Sequence record: NC_052654.1
Origin: Escherichia phage vB_EcoM-Ro121c4YLVW
DNA: 64,000 nucleotides
Reading direction: 5' to 3' (one strand)
The notes beneath the pieces are model-generated. The model was not told the DNA's origin and ran no database searches. It worked only from the letters and a program-made list of their open reading frames with translations. Shown here one piece after another: positions 2,199-64,000 of the stretch (positions within the stretch are counted from its first letter, which is position 1; each line of letters opens with the position of its first letter). Both the position numbers and the translations under genes were made by a program.

Positions 2199-2855
2199 AT
2201 GACTATTAAACATATCTCTTTTGATGTATGGAACACACTGATCACAGCAAACTCCAATTACGCAGACATGCGAGCCTGGACTATCGCAAAATATGGAGAT
2301 ATTACGGAAGTGGAAGCAAGAGCAGCTTATAAAAAGATCAAAAAGGAACTGGATAATGCAGCACTTCAAGGCAAAGCCGAGTGTGCAGCATACGCTTGGG
2401 AAAGACTTGGTTCTGAACTTGGGATAACGCCTTGGAAGTCTGCAAAGCTTCGTTTCGAGTGTGAACAGTGGTTCCTTAAGTTTCCACCACACGTAGCCGT
2501 GGATCTGCCGATGTACTTGCTGTATCTTTCGGGGCGTTATGATTTGAGTATTAAGAGCAATACCAACTTCATATCAGGGGATATCCTGCGTCGTGCTTGT
2601 AAGTTTGATAGTTGGAATTGTTTTGAGTTCACCCATTTCTCGGATGAAGCTTTACTTTGTAAACCAGATCCGCGATTCTTTGCTCGCACGCTCACGTATT
2701 CTCCGGTCCCTCTGTTAGGGCACGAAGTATTGCACGTAGGCGATAGTGAAGAATATGATGGAAAATGTGTTGACTTAGGATTTAACTTCTGTCATATTAA
2801 GAACCCTAACGACTTACTAGAGAAACTTAAAAGAGGAGAAATTGTAAATGCGTAA
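2199..2855 (+). CDS. HAD-superfamily hydrolase/phosphatase (haloacid-dehalogenase-like subfamily)
   Basis: Four HAD motifs are present: motif I FDVWNTL (compare FDxYGTL), motif II SIKSNTN, motif III CKPDPRFF, motif IV HVGDSEEYDG. Confidence 0.85.
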   Translation: MTIKHISFDVWNTLITANSNYADMRAWTIAKYGDITEVEARAAYKKIKKELDNAALQGKAECAAYAWERLGSELGITPWKSAKLRFECEQWFLKFPPHVAVDLPMYLLYLSGRYDLSIKSNTNFISGDILRRACKFDSWNCFEFTHFSDEALLCKPDPRFFARTLTYSPVPLLGHEVLHVGDSEEYDGKCVDLGFNFCHIKNPNDLLEKLKRGEIVNA

Positions 2856-3675
2856 TCAAACTCAAATTTTTGCAAATAAATTTGATGACCTGGAAACTGC
2901 TACTTTTGATATCAAAGATTATTCAAAATTGAAATTTGGTAGTAACCAAGCTGCGCGTCGTATGGGTAAAGAATTGGCACTTCAGTTTTTTGCTCAAGTG
3001 GCAATGAAACATATTGGGGAACAATTTGTTATCATCCCTTCTCCTTATAACCATGTGCATAATGCTGCAACAATGATGACAGATCATTTTATTAATTACT
3101 TTAATATGTTGCAAGCACAATATGATCAAGGTCGTTCAGCAGAACTGGATATTATTCATCGTAAAGTTAGCTATATCAACGATTATGGTTTCTTGGATAA
3201 AGCTAGTCGTAAGAAACTTATTGATGGGGATACATTCTACTGCAACAAAGAATTCTGGGGTGATAAGAAGCTTGTGTTCATTGATGATGTAAATATCACC
3301 GGAACTCATGAAGACAAACTGATTGAGATTCTTGATGAAAATCAAGTTAAAAATGATGTTTACTTCTTGTATTTTGCAAAATATGAAGGTAATCAAGCAG
3401 ATACTGAAGCTAAACTGAATTTTAACTACATCAATACACCAGAAGCGTTTGTTAAAATGATTAATGAAGAACGTGATGCACAGTGCCTTGTTCGTCCTAT
3501 TAAGTATCTTATGGGCCAAAATCACGAAGACTTCAAAATCATTCTTAGCCAATTGCCACACTACTATGTAGAGCAACTTTTCTTTGGATGTTTGGGAGAA
3601 GGTTACAACCGAATTTCAAAGTATGCTGAAAACTTTGAATTCTTGGATCGTTACACAAAACAACATATTCTGTAA
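2848..3675 (+). CDS. Phosphoribosyltransferase (type I PRTase fold, Ter-associated/ComF-like type)
   Basis: PRPP-binding loop KLVFIDDVNITGTHEDK (hydrophobic-DD-x-x-TG-T). The ORF overlaps the HAD gene by 8 nt. Confidence 0.8.
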   Translation: MRNQTQIFANKFDDLETATFDIKDYSKLKFGSNQAARRMGKELALQFFAQVAMKHIGEQFVIIPSPYNHVHNAATMMTDHFINYFNMLQAQYDQGRSAELDIIHRKVSYINDYGFLDKASRKKLIDGDTFYCNKEFWGDKKLVFIDDVNITGTHEDKLIEILDENQVKNDVYFLYFAKYEGNQADTEAKLNFNYINTPEAFVKMINEERDAQCLVRPIKYLMGQNHEDFKIILSQLPHYYVEQLFFGCLGEGYNRISKYAENFEFLDRYTKQHIL

Positions 3676-19942: not shown

Positions 19943-22900
19943 TGAGTAAGTTTACATGGGATATTGAAGCAAACGGATTGTTGAATAATGACACTATTGA
20001 TTATTTAGCTAGTCCTTATCGTCTCAAAGACACATTTCAAATGCACTGTATTGTCTTAGAGAACCATGAAACAGGAGAAATAGTAGCTTTCCACGATGGC
20101 CCTAAATACATCTTTGATGGGCGTCCTTATGAAGAGTCAGATGGTAAATACACATATGTTCTTAAAGAGTATGTGGCGCAAGATTACACACATTTTCAAC
20201 TAAAAGATTTCCCAGACTTTATTAATCATGAAGGTTATTTTAAAGATAAGCCTGAATATCTGGTTGAAATGGCTGTGGCTCACAACGGTATCAACTACGA
20301 CTGGTTGGCTACAAAACTGTTTTATGGATTAGATTACAGTGTTAAATATAATACGTGGGGCAAAAATAAGGTAAAACTTATTGACTCCTTGATTTTGAGT
20401 AAAGTGTTAAACCCAGATCGAAAGATTGAGGGCAAATCAGGACATAGCTTGGCAGCACTTTCTCGAAAAGCAGGTGGTGATGTAAAAATAGATTTCCGTA
20501 AAGAGATTCCAGAAGAAGATCGATTTAAGACTTTTGCTGCGGATATGCTTTATTACTGTATCTATGACAACAAAGCCAATACGAGCGTATATAATTACCT
20601 TATGGAAGAATGGGGCGATTATGATAAATGGGAAGGTCCATTTGAACTTGAACAACGTGTAGCAGACATTATTACACGCCAGGAACACCGTGGGTTTGCT
20701 TTTAACATGAAGCAAGCAGAAGAGAACCTTGCTTTTTTGGATGCAGAAATGGAGCGTCTTCGTTTACTCGTTGAGCCTATTTTGCCACCTAAACCAGCAA
20801 CAAAAGGTTATCTTAAGGCTTTTATTCCACCTAAGTTGCAAATTAAAAAGAACTTAGAGCCAACTAACCATATGATCAATTTTGCTAAGAAACATGATGG
20901 TCATTTGGAAGAGAGGGATGGCGATTGGTGGTTAGTTATGTTGGGGAAAGAGTGGAAACTGCCAGTTGCAGCAGATGAGCCTCTATGTGATCCTAACATC
21001 CCTGCAACATTGAACGATACAACCCATATTAAAAACTGGCTCGTAGGATTAGGTTGGGTACCGTCTGAATATAAAGATAAAGACTTGACGCTTAAATCTG
21101 GCACCAAAATTAAAAAGAGCGAGGAAGAACTTCAGAAAGGTATTAGAGCTTACGTTGAGCAAACTCTATCTTCTAATTTTTGTCAGGATCGTTGTGATCA
21201 TCTGGAGTGCACACCGGAAACTTTGGAAAGGAAGATTCAAGAGCGTATAGCAAAAGGTAAAGGTCGCGGTCTTAAAGTATTGACTAACCCATGTTTTACC
21301 AAAGGTCAGGAAAAAGAAATTTGTCCTAACCTGCAAGCTTTGGGTGAGAAATTTCCTTATGCTACACAGATTGTAGAATACTTAACGTATAAGCATCGTA
21401 GGAACTCTATTTTAGGTGGCGGTGCTGATTGGGAAGAAGATGAAGAAGATCAAGAATACGATAAAGGTTTCTTAGCCGCAGTAAGGGCGGATGGGCGTAT
21501 TCCTACACCAGCCGCTACATGTGATGCTGCAACCTCTCGTATGAAACATAGATCTGTAGCTAATATTCCTCGTGTCACATCTTTGTTTGGATGGGAGATG
21601 CGTAACTTGTTTGGTGTAGAAGTTCCTAAATACTTCCAGATCGGTTATGACTTCGACTCTTTGGAAGCAAAGATTGAGTCGCATTACTGTGTGCCGATGG
21701 ATGCTCAAGCTTTGACTCGTAAAGGTTGGGTAGGATATCACGACCTGAAGGAAGGGGATGAGATTTTAGGGTACAATGCTGAAACAGGTATGAAAGAATG
21801 GACTAAAGTAAAAGGTAAGGTCTTCTATAAAAATAGTAAGACGTTTGAGATTAAAGGGAAATCACACACTTACCGTGCAACAGCAGATCACCGTTGGTAT
21901 GTTAATACCCGTAGTAAAGGGAATACTTATGTGCCTAAAGTCAGAACAACTGCCGAGCTTTGCACAGGAGATAATATTATTTGTAATGCTCCATTTAACA
22001 TGGAACAAGATCAGGTAAATAGTTTAACTTCTGTTCAACAAGGTAAATGGGATGTTCCGTGGGTAGAGCGTGTAGTTAATATGTCTCATGCCGAGCGTGT
22101 AGCTTTCTTGGAAGGTTTCTTGATTGCAGATGGTTACTGGCATGAACATAAACAAAAACCTGTTTGGCGTTGGGCGCAGAACCCAGGTGAACTTTTTGAA
22201 GCAGCTTTAACTGCCTCGTACCTGGTGCATGGAGGCAATATCTCTGTAGCTTTCAATACAAAAGAGCAGAAAGTAAAAGTGGCAACATTGACTAACCGCT
22301 CTCACATTCCTGTTCAAAGTTTGACTATTGAAGAGTGGGGTGTAGAGGATGTTTGGTGTCCACAAACAGAACTTGGTACGTGGGTCATGCGTCAGAAAGA
22401 CTGCATTACCATCACAGGAAACTGTTGGCGCTACGAACCGGAGCCTCATGAATACTGTAACGCTCTCTTGTTAGAGAAGCCTAACGATGTTCATACCATG
22501 ATGGCAAAACGTATTACAGATACTATTGGGCGTAAATTTGAACGTAGTCCGGCGAAATCTGTTAAATACGGGATCACTTATGGTGCACAAGCAGACAAGG
22601 TTGCTAAAACAATTGGTAGCGATAAATACACAGGGCAACTGGTGTTCGATGCTTTCTGGGAAGCTGCATTCCCACTGGCGCGTCTTAAAGAACGTTTAAA
22701 CGATTTCTGGGTTAAGACTGGTAAACAGTATGTTTTGGGTATTGACGGTCGTAAGGTTCCTACTCGTTCTGCTCACGCGATTCTTAACTCTCTGTTCCAA
22801 AGTGGTGGGGTTATCTGTGCTAAACGTGCAATGGTTATTTATGACGACATGATCGAAGAAGAAGGGCTAAGTGTTGACTTCTTTAAAGATGACTGGAAGA

Positions 22901-59937: not shown

Positions 59938-60417
59938 TTAGTCCTTCTTGACTTTAACGCCCATTGCGCCTATACTCAAACCTTTAAGAACGCCGTCTTT
60001 ACGAGCTTGATATAATTCAGGGTCGTTGAATTGGATTTTAACGAGGGGAGTTCCTTCCACAACGAGTTCGTCACCAATGTAACAATCGACTTCATTTACC
60101 CAAGCTTTAATTGGAGAAAACTTATCGGTGTTCTTCATGTGACCAAGATTACCACTAATATTGGTAATATTCTCATTGAAGTTGTCAACCATCTTCCTGA
60201 TTTCCAAATCAGACATGCGCTCTCCGTGGAGATCGTCTTCTTCAGGTGGACAATACAAGACCTCAATAACCTGCATCTTTTCTTCATCAAATTTATTTTG
60301 TTTGACTAGAGTTTCAGGTTTTTGAGATGGTATAGAATCTTGTTGGGATTCAGAATTCTCTTTAAAACCAGCGAAGGTTTTGAAGAGTTCCCACAGTGTA
60401 TCTTTATTGAGTTCCAT
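59938..60417 (-). CDS. XkdF-like putative prohead serine protease
   Basis: DLHGERMSDLEIRKMVDNF...GHMKN....IKAWVNE...GTPLVKIQFNDPELYQARKDGVLKGLSIGAMG matches the XkdF-type pattern. Confidence 0.6.
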   Translation of the reverse strand: MELNKDTLWELFKTFAGFKENSESQQDSIPSQKPETLVKQNKFDEEKMQVIEVLYCPPEEDDLHGERMSDLEIRKMVDNFNENITNISGNLGHMKNTDKFSPIKAWVNEVDCYIGDELVVEGTPLVKIQFNDPELYQARKDGVLKGLSIGAMGVKVKKD

Positions 60418-62177: not shown

Positions 62178-64000
62178 TTATCTTTTACGGACACTATACG
62201 GTTGGTGAAATCCGCTGTTCATTCTACTGTATCCTGTAGGAGCATTTGTTGTTGCAGGGATAGCTACTGCTTTGAAAGTATTCTCTTTTGACAGAGTATT
62301 GAAACAAGAAGCAGCAGCATCGGGAATGTCATCTTTAATAGTGGCTGTAGATCTTTCACCATTGAAAGATTCCAATTCTTTATAAAAGTGGGTTAAAGTT
62401 TCCACATTAGGGAAAGAATCTTCAACAATATAAACAAAACCGTTTTGACACGCACTACTAAAAGGCATAAAACGCTGAAGCTTTTTCTTGTTGCCTGGCA
62501 TAGCATCTGGTTTAACAACAAAACCCTCTAGAATAAGTTTCTTTGCAGACTCTGTATATTCTATTGTCCCAGCACCAGATGGGTCTTTAGGAAGAACTAC
62601 TGTAACTTCTGGTCCATCAATCTTACATTGATTTAGAATCAGGTTATCCCTTTCCCCAGGTAATCTTCGAAACCTTCCGAAAATTTTACTTTTCTCATCC
62701 ACAGCATCATAATCATAGTCACCAAAGATGTAGATATTACCATCTTGGTCTTTACCCATTTTGACAGATGTTGTATAGTCTGGATAACGATAAGTTTCTG
62801 TAGGAACTGAAACAGCTTTATCCCATGCTCGCATTAGTTTAAGATTATTAGGAACATCTTTATAAGATATCTTATGCAACCATTCACGTTGGAAGAAAGA
62901 CTCTTTCTGTATACGTGCAAACCAACAGCCGTCCAAGAGTTGTGCTCTTTTGATTGCTGTTTGTGATTTAAGCTGTGCTAAATAATTAGGGTTAAGCCTA
63001 ATCAATTCTGGGTTATCAAATATTGTCCCACCGATAAATACGAAAGTTTGTGGTTCAATAACAACTGTCTCCCCTGTATTAGGGTTTTCCATGAAACAGT
63101 TTTCTGGATATTTTTCTTTCAGTTCTTCAGGTGTGTCAGCAAAAACAGGTTCATCGTTAACAATGATGAAATATTTTTGTTTACCACACATATCTTCTCT
63201 AGGATAACCGCCCTCATCGAGATAAGGTAGTACCCAATTCAAAACCCAACTATCTGCATCGGGGTTACATGTGCACAACATGAAGCTTGTTTCTGATTCT
63301 GAACGCATACGTCCCAGAAGATAGAGCATTTCATACTGTGTGAAGTGGGTTAACTCGTCAAAACCTACCATTGAATACTGTGTACCCTGATGGTTTGTTT
63401 CTGCGGTTACGTTATCGTTTTCCAAATGGTCAAATTTGAGGGTTCCGCCGCCAGTGGCTTCAAAAATGATATCCATTGTACTTTCTTTTACGTGTGGTTG
63501 TAAAGGAAGATACAAACGTTTTGCTTCTGTAAACAGACCACCTGGTTTACGGTGAGCAGTGGTGTTCTTACGGAAAAGTATTCCACCAAACAAAGGGTCT
63601 TTGTAGGCGTATTTTAAAGCTTTCAGCAATAGCAGACGAGACTTGCCGCTATTCCCAGTAACGAAGCAGTGATCGCCACGTCTAAAGACAATATAGCTGC
63701 TTGGAGTCTCAAAACAATATTTCTTATCATCTGTTGAAATAACCTCGTGTATTTTTAAGTAAGTGCTCTTTTTACCAGGTATGTTAAAAGGAACACGTTT
63801 ACCGAATGGATTTTCTACATAACCTTGCAGGGGTTTTCCTATTTGCTGTAATGCAATAAGATCTCCTACAAGAATCTCGAAATGTTTCTTTGATTTCTTT
63901 TTCTTATAGAATACAAAACGGTGTTCCATACTAAGTTCTTGGAACAATCCTACACCATTTGTTATTCTGTATAGATTATCTCCATTTAAATCGTATTCTA
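62178..64000 (-). CDS. Terminase large subunit (5' end outside window)
   Basis: P-loop ..SGKSRLLLL, Walker B MVGFDELTHF, coupling motif CTCNPD, and a C-terminal nuclease half. The frame stays open upstream of the track's TTG (63947) to the window edge. Confidence 0.9.
   Translation of the reverse strand, partial: EYDLNGDNLYRITNGVGLFQELSMEHRFVFYKKKKSKKHFEILVGDLIALQQIGKPLQGYVENPFGKRVPFNIPGKKSTYLKIHEVISTDDKKYCFETPSSYIVFRRGDHCFVTGNSGKSRLLLLKALKYAYKDPLFGGILFRKNTTAHRKPGGLFTEAKRLYLPLQPHVKESTMDIIFEATGGGTLKFDHLENDNVTAETNHQGTQYSMVGFDELTHFTQYEMLYLLGRMRSESETSFMLCTCNPDADSWVLNWVLPYLDEGGYPREDMCGKQKYFIIVNDEPVFADTPEELKEKYPENCFMENPNTGETVVIEPQTFVFIGGTIFDNPELIRLNPNYLAQLKSQTAIKRAQLLDGCWFARIQKESFFQREWLHKISYKDVPNNLKLMRAWDKAVSVPTETYRYPDYTTSVKMGKDQDGNIYIFGDYDYDAVDEKSKIFGRFRRLPGERDNLILNQCKIDGPEVTVVLPKDPSGAGTIEYTESAKKLILEGFVVKPDAMPGNKKKLQRFMPFSSACQNGFVYIVEDSFPNVETLTHFYKELESFNGERSTATIKDDIPDAAASCFNTLSKENTFKAVAIPATTNAPTGYSRMNSGFHQPYSVRKR
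63651..64000 (-). mobile_element. Possible C-terminal part of an intein inserted in the TerL P-loop (hypothesis)
   Basis: ..KYCFETPSSYIVFRRGDHCFVTGN|SGKS aligns without gaps to the polymerase intein end ..VWCPQTELGTWVMRQKDCITITGN|C, with 8 of 24 residues identical including the terminal TGN. A Ser is at +1 and the GKS of Walker A follows directly. Confidence 0.4.

Follow-up and report, generated by a model that had tools for sequence, protein, structure and literature searches.

Inteins in the ATPase domain of the large terminase subunit (TerL) of bacteriophages, Walker A motif included, are well documented (PMC5050341; PMC2807308). In mycobacteriophages, terminase inteins occur in this domain, and their splicing has been shown (Kelley et al. 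2016, PMC5050341). The DNA analyzed here is a stretch of 64,000 nucleotides from Escherichia phage vB_EcoM-Ro121c4YLVW (NC_052654.1), hereafter the window. At its right end, the minus strand encodes a TerL whose Walker A motif is interrupted by an insert of 159 residues. This insert is very probably a mini-intein without a homing endonuclease, and both its sequence and its modeled fold predict that it splices. A preliminary description, made from the letters of the stretch, had proposed an intein at this site and rightly stated that such insertions were known from other phages. The proposal is now supported by the upstream junction, intein-free homologues, a family profile and the predicted fold.

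The intein closest to the TerL insert in sequence and fold is the split intein AceL NrdHF (PDB 6ZGQ; Hoffmann et al. 2020, PMC7891396), which experiments have proven to be of class 3. AceL NrdHF begins with Ala1, resides in a ribonucleotide reductase and is split in nature, the interruption being a GIY-YIG endonuclease gene, whereas the TerL intein begins with Cys1, is contiguous and lies in a P-loop. The Thr144-Gly145-Asn146/Ser+1 end of AceL NrdHF (a slash marks a splice junction throughout) splices efficiently, and the G145H exchange abolishes activity through a clash with Arg69. This arginine, at block position B:11, contacts the carbonyl of the C-terminal scissile bond and partly stands in for the missing histidines (PMC7891396). 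A penultimate Gly, as in the TerL intein, is also documented among phage inteins in the mycobacteriophage study. There, the class 1 intein of Bethlehem gp51, which has this residue, splices faster than its Gly-to-His mutant (PMC5050341).

Differences from the mycobacteriophage inteins concern the site and the mode of persistence. Their P-loop sites TerL1-a and TerL1-b lie at or next to K/T in enzymes of the Terminase_1 type, whereas the present site, G/SGKS, is three residues upstream in an enzyme of the Terminase_6N type. Their sole site in a Terminase_6 protein is in the C-motif. Many of them have active endonucleases and a sporadic distribution (PMC5050341), in contrast to the fixed mini-intein described here. 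In canonical class 1 mini-inteins (e.g., Npu/Ssp DnaB, gp41-1), F:4 is Asp and the penultimate residue is usually His; the TerL intein has Cys at F:4 and Gly at G:6, together with Arg at B:11. Class 3 (WCT) inteins such as MP-Be DnaB and Msm/Mch DnaB-1 share Cys at F:4, Thr at G:5 and Ser+1 with the TerL intein. They likewise show a preference for P-loops in ATPases of phages and in helicases, and have been proposed to originate from phages (PMC2807308).

Over the 1.9 kb at the right end of the window, identity to Escherichia phage ESCO13 and to some 60 further phages of the genus Phapecoctavirus (Stephanstirmvirinae) is 99.9%. The gene on the minus strand is labeled 'terminase large subunit' in the RefSeq record of ESCO13, and the portal gene follows it. 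Its frame has no stop from the first full codon at 63998 to the stop codon at 62178. The TTG at 63947 is therefore not the real start, as the preliminary description had suspected in calling it arbitrary. Of the 1823 nt of TerL in the window, a single one is different in ESCO13; it lies in the C-extein, and the intein part is identical. Hence, ESCO13 was used for the TerL sequence beyond base 64000. In ESCO13, the open reading frame (ORF) starts with GTG, 253 nt further upstream, behind a GGAGG ribosome-binding site. The parts and residues present in the window are as follows.

62178-63650, minus strand: TerL C-extein, with the remaining ATPase domain and the nuclease domain, to the stop codon (Terminase_6N, E 5e-17; RefSeq annotation of ESCO13)
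63639-63650, minus strand: Ser+1, the C-extein nucleophile (63650-63648), then GKS, the C-terminal half of Walker A (GGAAG/SGKS)
63651-64000, minus strand: predicted TerL mini-intein, C-terminal 116 codons (residues 44-159 of 159) and 2 nt of codon 43, in an open frame continued in ESCO13 as GGAAG/CVSAETEY...
63651-63665, minus strand: predicted intein block G, FVTGN, with Thr157 (G:5), Gly158 (G:6, where His is usual) and Asn159 (G:7, codon 63653-63651), matching ...SVTGN/S of AceL NrdHF (PMC7891396)
63705-63722, minus strand: predicted intein block F, KYCFET, with Cys138 at F:4 (codon 63716-63714), aligned to Cys124 of AceL NrdHF
63909-63935, minus strand: predicted intein block B, LSMEHRFVF, with Ser66 (B:7), His69 (B:10), Arg70 (B:11) and Phe71 (B:12), aligned to S65-x-x-H68-R69-M70 of AceL NrdHF (PMC7891396)
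63932-63921, minus strand: S-M-E-H of block B, i.e., (T/S)xxH, its His invariant in the family

Most particulars of the preliminary description hold at this junction. The peptide quoted there is encoded on the minus strand as ...DDKKYCFETPSSYIVFRRGDHCFVTGN/SGKSRLLLL, with the last Asn codon at 63653-63651 and, as claimed, a Ser nucleophile at +1 (63650-63648) directly followed by GKS. The stretch before the P-loop, given there as about 117 residues, exists and comprises 116 complete codons in the window. The N-terminal junction and blocks A and B, sought upstream of the window edge, are found in ESCO13, where the GGAAG/C junction reads ...VMIYGGAAG/CVSAETEYLTKDGW and the C-terminal one ...HCFVTGN/SGKSRLLLL. 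The ORF crosses the N-terminal junction as ...MPEVMIYGGAAG/CVSAETEYLTKDGWKQISEY..., and from its start the protein is MAKKKAAGSLAGVDIEVKAQPGKQTLAMDLMPEVMIYGGAAG/CVSAETEYLTKDGWKQISEY...HCFVTGN/SGKSRLLLL. The insert comprises TerL residues 43-201, between Gly42 and Ser202 of a precursor of 691 amino acids, which leaves an N-extein of 42. Cys1 of the intein is thus Cys43 of ESCO13 TerL, beyond the window edge, and block A consists of Cys1 ... Thr-Glu-x-Leu ... Gly-Trp. Removal of the insert gives ...YGGAAGSGKSRLLLL, with the standard Walker A GGAAGSGKS.

Intein-free terminases have the same arrangement as the spliced product. In a tblastn search with the N-terminal 285 residues of the spliced sequence, Felixounavirus TerLs aligned in one piece from query position 17 to 285, across the junction, and colinearity with intein-free TerLs is borne out for that product. 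The intein-free Felixounavirus HY02 has the Walker A GGAAGAGKT in the context LVLYGGAAGAGKTAALLM; its QPGSQEVFLNTNADLVLYGGAAGAGKTAALLM corresponds to QPGKQTLAMDLMPEVMIYGGAAG-SGKSRLLLL in the spliced query. The N-terminus of HY02 was misplaced in a MAFFT alignment of full TerLs, and the junction was read by eye and from the one-piece tblastn match. The Pfam Terminase_6N match begins at TerL residue 202 with profile position 8, which means that the first 7 profile positions precede the insert. The +1 residue is Ala in HY02 and Ser in every intein-bearing TerL. The preliminary description had added the caveat that FVTGNSGKS might be a deviant Walker A after an ordinary N-terminal domain, with no intein involved. 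GNSGKS is superficially compatible with GxxGK[ST], but the true first half, YGGAAG, comes from the N-extein (cf. YGGAAGAGKT in intein-free homologues), the intervening 159 amino acids are predicted to fold as a HINT domain, and the insert resembles inteins of helicases, RtcB, NrdA and polymerases. The Walker A proper is GGAAG+SGKS, split by an insert whose profile and predicted fold match inteins; the caveat is refuted and keeps a negligible probability.

The evidence that the insert is an intein comes from profiles, models and conserved residues. A family profile of 13 members matched the AceL NrdHF intein (PDB 6ZGQ) with an E value of 1.3e-7. With 15 members, the match to 6zgq_A reached an E value of 1.5e-9 and spanned the entire domain up to the ...SVTG(N)S end, Thr157 being aligned to T144. 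The profile also reached archaeal Pol II inteins (E ~1e-3 to 3e-3), and the TerL ORF of the window matches the intein-family profile with an E value of 1.9e-52. For an AlphaFold model of a homologue with 79% identity (pLDDT 80.7), the top 50 Foldseek matches were all HINT or intein structures. The exact allele was modeled as well and gave a single HINT domain matching solved inteins. No family member departs from Cys1, His69 (B:10), Cys138 (F:4), Gly158, Asn159 and Ser+1. In block F, K-Y-C-F is constant among the 13 aligned sequences, and Y-C-F stays constant with more distant members added. The insert therefore has most of the features that define an intein, i.e., a predicted HINT fold, an insertion whose removal restores a motif, Cys1, the block B (T/S)xxH, and a C-terminal Asn followed by Ser+1. 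The penultimate residue (G:6) is Gly158 and not His. Features of a homing intein are missing, as the insert has no LAGLIDADG match in Pfam, totals 159 amino acids in a single domain and is not sporadic. The insertion, its exact boundaries, the predicted HINT fold, the catalytic residues with their conservation and the strong purifying selection are established directly; from them we infer that splicing occurs and which cysteine would initiate it.

Several points weigh against this reading. The intein models of Pfam and NCBIfam gave no match to the 160-residue insert at E values up to 1, and a single-sequence phmmer search of PDB sequences returned noise only and no intein. The curated models also miss related members of the same clade. 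Both the penultimate His and the His at F:13 are missing, and asparagine cyclization must consequently depend on another residue. As Cys1 and the Cys at F:4 are both conserved, the initiating nucleophile is not assignable from sequence. Furthermore, the N-terminal 43 intein residues and the N-extein lie outside the window and are taken from the near-identical ESCO13.

The silence of the curated models and the absence of the canonical penultimate His would also suit a HINT insert that does not splice, either a dead intein or a cleavage-only domain, with TerL working unspliced or as two fragments. Against such an insert, all catalytic positions are invariant across genera, the ratio of nonsynonymous to synonymous substitution rates (dN/dS) is 0.05, and the +1 nucleophile is confined to intein-bearing alleles, Ala standing in its place in intein-free HY02. 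The phages themselves are viable, and the regions examined (the window and the ESCO13 locus) showed no second terL. A P-loop NTPase fold cannot accommodate a domain of 159 amino acids inside GxxxxGK[ST], which makes an unspliced enzyme incompatible with that fold. Bacterial intein-like (BIL) domains, moreover, have no +1 nucleophile and mainly cleave rather than splice (PMC7664689), whereas Ser+1 is invariant here. A dead or BIL-like insert was rejected on account of the invariant catalytic residues, the dN/dS and Ser+1, and is regarded as very improbable.

Essentially all Stephanstirmvirinae have the TerL intein, and its divergence parallels that of the host gene. The intein is at least 99% identical in phapecoctaviruses, 87% identical in Justusliebigvirus (phi92 and relatives) and 72-84% identical in the Klebsiella members of the subfamily. 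About 132 records contain the intein and about 134 a close extein; both counts are approximate, with no one-to-one matching of the records. Between ESCO13 and EmilieFrey, where the dN/dS of 0.05 was obtained with synonymous sites near saturation, the intein is 88% identical and the exteins are 81-90% identical. In comparison with Klebsiella phage 05F01, the values are 73% and 62-70%, respectively. The lack of an endonuclease, the near-universal presence and the gene-like divergence indicate an old, vertically inherited mini-intein. It is a fixed and functionally constrained passenger, probably kept functional because TerL cannot work unspliced. Related inteins occur at the identical site in distant TerLs, namely those of Vibrio phage PWH3a-P1, Avunavirus Av-05 and many metagenomic relatives, both as mini forms and as forms of ~315-320 amino acids with LAGLIDADG motifs.

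The base composition of the gene is uneven. In ESCO13 TerL, the GC content is 34.4% in the intein, 38.7% in the C-extein and 42.9% in the N-extein, and the intein coding region is richer in AT than both exteins (window 63651-64000 vs 62178-63650).

Beyond TerL, the insert belongs to a much larger group. A profile search of 1.84 billion representative proteins yielded 6,553 clusters at E values up to 1e-3 and 1,241 at up to 1e-10. Residues were counted in the best 150 of the 6,553 clusters, together with 14 proteins from an earlier word-indexed protein search. In this sample, residue 1 is Cys in all 186 N-terminal halves and F:4 is Cys in all but one of the 176 C-terminal halves. Position B:11 is usually Arg and B:12 mostly Val. 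The inteins end in TGN (141 of 176) or SGN (28), i.e., in [TS]GN in 169 of 176. Among the 174 paired inteins, 122 (70%) interrupt a P-loop at G/[S/T/C]GK[S/T]. The paired inteins have a median length of 315 amino acids, and 23 are mini-inteins. The same signature is seen in the inteins of a Pseudomonas phage primase/helicase, a Vibrio phage RecD-like helicase, a Bacillus phage RtcB, a Salmonella phage NrdA and an Acinetobacter phage polymerase. The TGN end thus characterizes a clade that is very large and resides mostly in phages. It is not the unusual feature that the preliminary description had taken for a private link between the TerL intein and an intein in the polymerase of the same phage.

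Among the metagenomic hosts (proteins P0016-P0060), many polypeptides have two or three clade inteins; P0018 has three, each of ~290 amino acids.

Ordinary protein splicing that would repair the P-loop after translation is the best-supported account of how TerL matures. TerL would be translated as a precursor with a computed mass of 78.6 kDa, its ATP-binding loop interrupted as GGAAG/intein/SGKS. The insert would fold as a HINT domain and bring both junctions together. Cys1 would attack the carbonyl of Gly42, aided by Ser66 and His69 of block B, with Cys138 of block F as an alternative or additional attacking thiol. After transfer of the N-extein to the hydroxyl of Ser+1, cyclization of Asn159 would free the intein (18.6 kDa), with Arg70 (B:11) in the role of the missing penultimate His. 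Finally, an O-to-N shift would give a normal peptide bond and a TerL of 60.1 kDa with the P-loop GGAAGSGKS intact. The tryptic peptide predicted across the ligated exteins is QTLAMDLMPEVMIYGGAAGSGK, and those spanning the precursor junctions are ...GGAAGCVSAETEYLTK and ...GDHCFVTGNSGK.

The presence of Cys1 throughout the clade sample favors a class 1 start. By the published definitions, the TerL intein is not a class 3 intein (PMC2807308; PMC7891396): Cys1 is present, and B:12 is Phe71 instead of Trp. It does have the Cys at F:4 (Cys138) and the Thr at G:5 (Thr157) of that class. A class-3-type start, in which Cys138 would attack the N-terminal junction first and form a branched thioester at block F, with Cys1 dispensable or in another role, bears on the mechanism only and not on the identity as an intein. 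Such chemistry is suggested by the kinship with the class 3 intein AceL NrdHF, by the near-universal Cys at F:4 (175/176 clade members sampled), by Thr or Ser at G:5 in nearly all of them and by Ser+1, which is typical for class 3. Three WCT-triplet inteins beginning with Ser or Cys were, in addition, listed by Tori et al. (PMC2807308). However, the conservation of Cys1 in 186 of 186 clade members argues for its use. The Trp at B:12 has given way to Phe in the TerL intein, and most clade members have Val there; AceL NrdHF has Met at this position and is nonetheless class 3. As defined operationally, class 3 also demands that position 1 is not Cys (PMC7891396). On balance, a class-3-type start is unlikely, though it deserves to be taken seriously.

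It is more doubtful still that the clade needs both thiols, either for an acyl relay from Cys1 to the Cys at F:4 and on to Ser+1, or for a redox-gating disulfide between the two cysteines. If both were obligatory, the clade would link class 1 and class 3 mechanistically, with AceL NrdHF as a derivative that lost Cys1. With redox gating, terminase maturation, and hence DNA packaging, would be conditional on the redox state of the host. WCT inteins that begin with Cys or Ser were reportedly tested by Tori and Perler in 2011.

The second intein of the window lies in the polymerase gene.

21688-22422, plus strand: polymerase intein of 245 amino acids, Cys1...ITITGN/Cys+1, with block B TADHRW, block F VWC and one LAGLIDADG-like motif (annotated as an intein in phage PaulScherrer, MZ501100.1)

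Its end, ...EDVWCPQTELGTWVMRQKDCITITGN/C, is found as quoted in the preliminary description, at 22405-22425. It has Cys1, TxxHR, the Cys at F:4 and the TGN end in common with the TerL intein, and Arg is at B:11 in both inteins of the window. It differs in its length of 245 amino acids, a LAGLIDADG-like remnant, Trp at B:12, Cys+1 and a sporadic distribution. Against Pfam Intein_splicing, it scores 17.5 bits, under the cut-off of 35.8.

From the shared ends, the preliminary description had derived the idea that one intein recently gave rise to the other within the genome, in either direction. The 8 ungapped identities in the last 24 positions were confirmed on recount. At least 8 identities occur in 2 of the 19,767 24-mers from the long ORFs of the window (1e-4); without the TGN anchor, at least 5 of 21 identities have a frequency of 0.003. 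This rarity means that the C-terminal similarity exceeds chance. A weak but specific similarity, which, like the shared Cys1, (S/T)xxHR, Cys F:4 and TGN, would fit intragenomic spread, is also detected by BLASTP (N-terminal match over 32 amino acids, E 0.009), by hhalign (E 6.8e-5) and with the TerL-family HMM (hidden Markov model), to which the polymerase intein aligns with both halves in register (14.6 bits, E 3e-4). The best 150 database clusters, from unrelated hosts, all score >107 bits against the same profile.

In a comparison of the splicing blocks (first 80 and last 36 residues), the polymerase intein is only 24% identical to the TerL intein, the lowest of nine clade members; the others reach 30-42%. 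The values are 42% for Av-05 TerL, 40% for the Vibrio phage RecD, 38% for the Salmonella phage NrdA and 36% each for the Pseudomonas phage primase/helicase and the Bacillus phage RtcB. Moreover, the polymerase intein is sporadic (33 records, inserted after motif A at ...EAKIESHY/C), whereas the TerL intein is fixed. The low identity, the low profile score and the sporadic versus fixed presence speak for independent acquisitions of both inteins from a common, widespread pool. The polymerase intein is the most distant clade member compared, and its spread to TerL was rejected; in either direction, a recent intragenomic origin is highly implausible.

The polymerase intein is polymorphic within the genus, as the phapecoctaviruses ukendt, nepoznato, nieznany and others are without the polymerase intein of the window type and have a different intein at a second polymerase site (KSVKYG/C...LTGN/CTYGAQADK; 324 amino acids, two LAGLIDADG-like motifs). 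The two polymerase inteins have 39% identity in the splicing blocks and are the closest pair in the set compared. In GenBank, the window-type polymerase intein is already annotated in the BASEL phage PaulScherrer (MZ501100.1) and in phage SD2. The mat_peptide 'intein' of PaulScherrer (L014:2504-3238) is one codon off the Cys1...Asn boundaries 2501-3235; as annotated, it would begin at Val2 and end at Cys+1.

The TerL intein, on the other hand, is not flagged in any of the records and cluster names seen, which read 'terminase large subunit', 'hypothetical protein' or 'large terminase with N-terminal endonuclease domain'. No report of an intein in the TerL of Stephanstirmvirinae was found in the open-access full-text literature searched, and an earlier mention elsewhere is possible. 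According to a paper from 2024, inteins are unreported in coliphages (PMC11162368). In the records seen, the TerL intein is unannotated; it belongs to a familiar type, and an intein in a terminase P-loop is not surprising in itself.

More than 130 sequenced genomes of coliphages and Klebsiella phages carry the TerL intein, including phi92, phAPEC8-type and BASEL phages, and many of these have been studied for therapy. The mature TerL is predicted to have 60 kDa rather than 79 kDa, which is relevant to proteomics, structural work and terminase phylogenies. Curated HMMs miss a clade of thousands of members, which might be recovered with the family profile of this study. As a small, contiguous and endonuclease-free relative of the fast-splicing AceL NrdHF with both Cys1 and the Cys at F:4, the TerL intein lends itself to testing how class 3 chemistry arose from class 1, and it might become a tool for protein engineering.

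Group I introns, certain or probable, also interrupt TerL genes of relatives. On a 67-kb Logan contig of SRR30563961, the TerL of a metagenomic relative has the P-loop intein and two group I introns.

L015:5861-6111 and L015:7173-7469: group I introns (Rfam RF00028) in the TerL gene of this relative, 86.6 and 53.4 bits

The first of them lies directly after ...AEANH and before QGTQYS, and explains why the database proteins P0002-P0008 all end at ..NH. In phage nepoznato (NC_052658.1, L002:3970-5034), TerL is annotated as two coding sequences with an HNH endonuclease ORF between them. The RNA flanking this ORF is group I intron-like (47.3 bits, just below the gathering score of 50), and the ORF probably encodes a homing endonuclease carried by an intron, placed within the nuclease half of TerL.

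A further annotation concerns the ORF of 159 amino acids after the portal gene (window 59938-60417, minus strand), called 'DNA methyltransferase' in the RefSeq records of ESCO13 and nepoznato. This name is probably wrong. The ORF matches Pfam Peptidase_S78_2 (XkdF-type prohead protease) with an E value of 1.4e-11, above the cut-off, and its position between the portal and the scaffold/capsid genes is consistent with a prohead protease.

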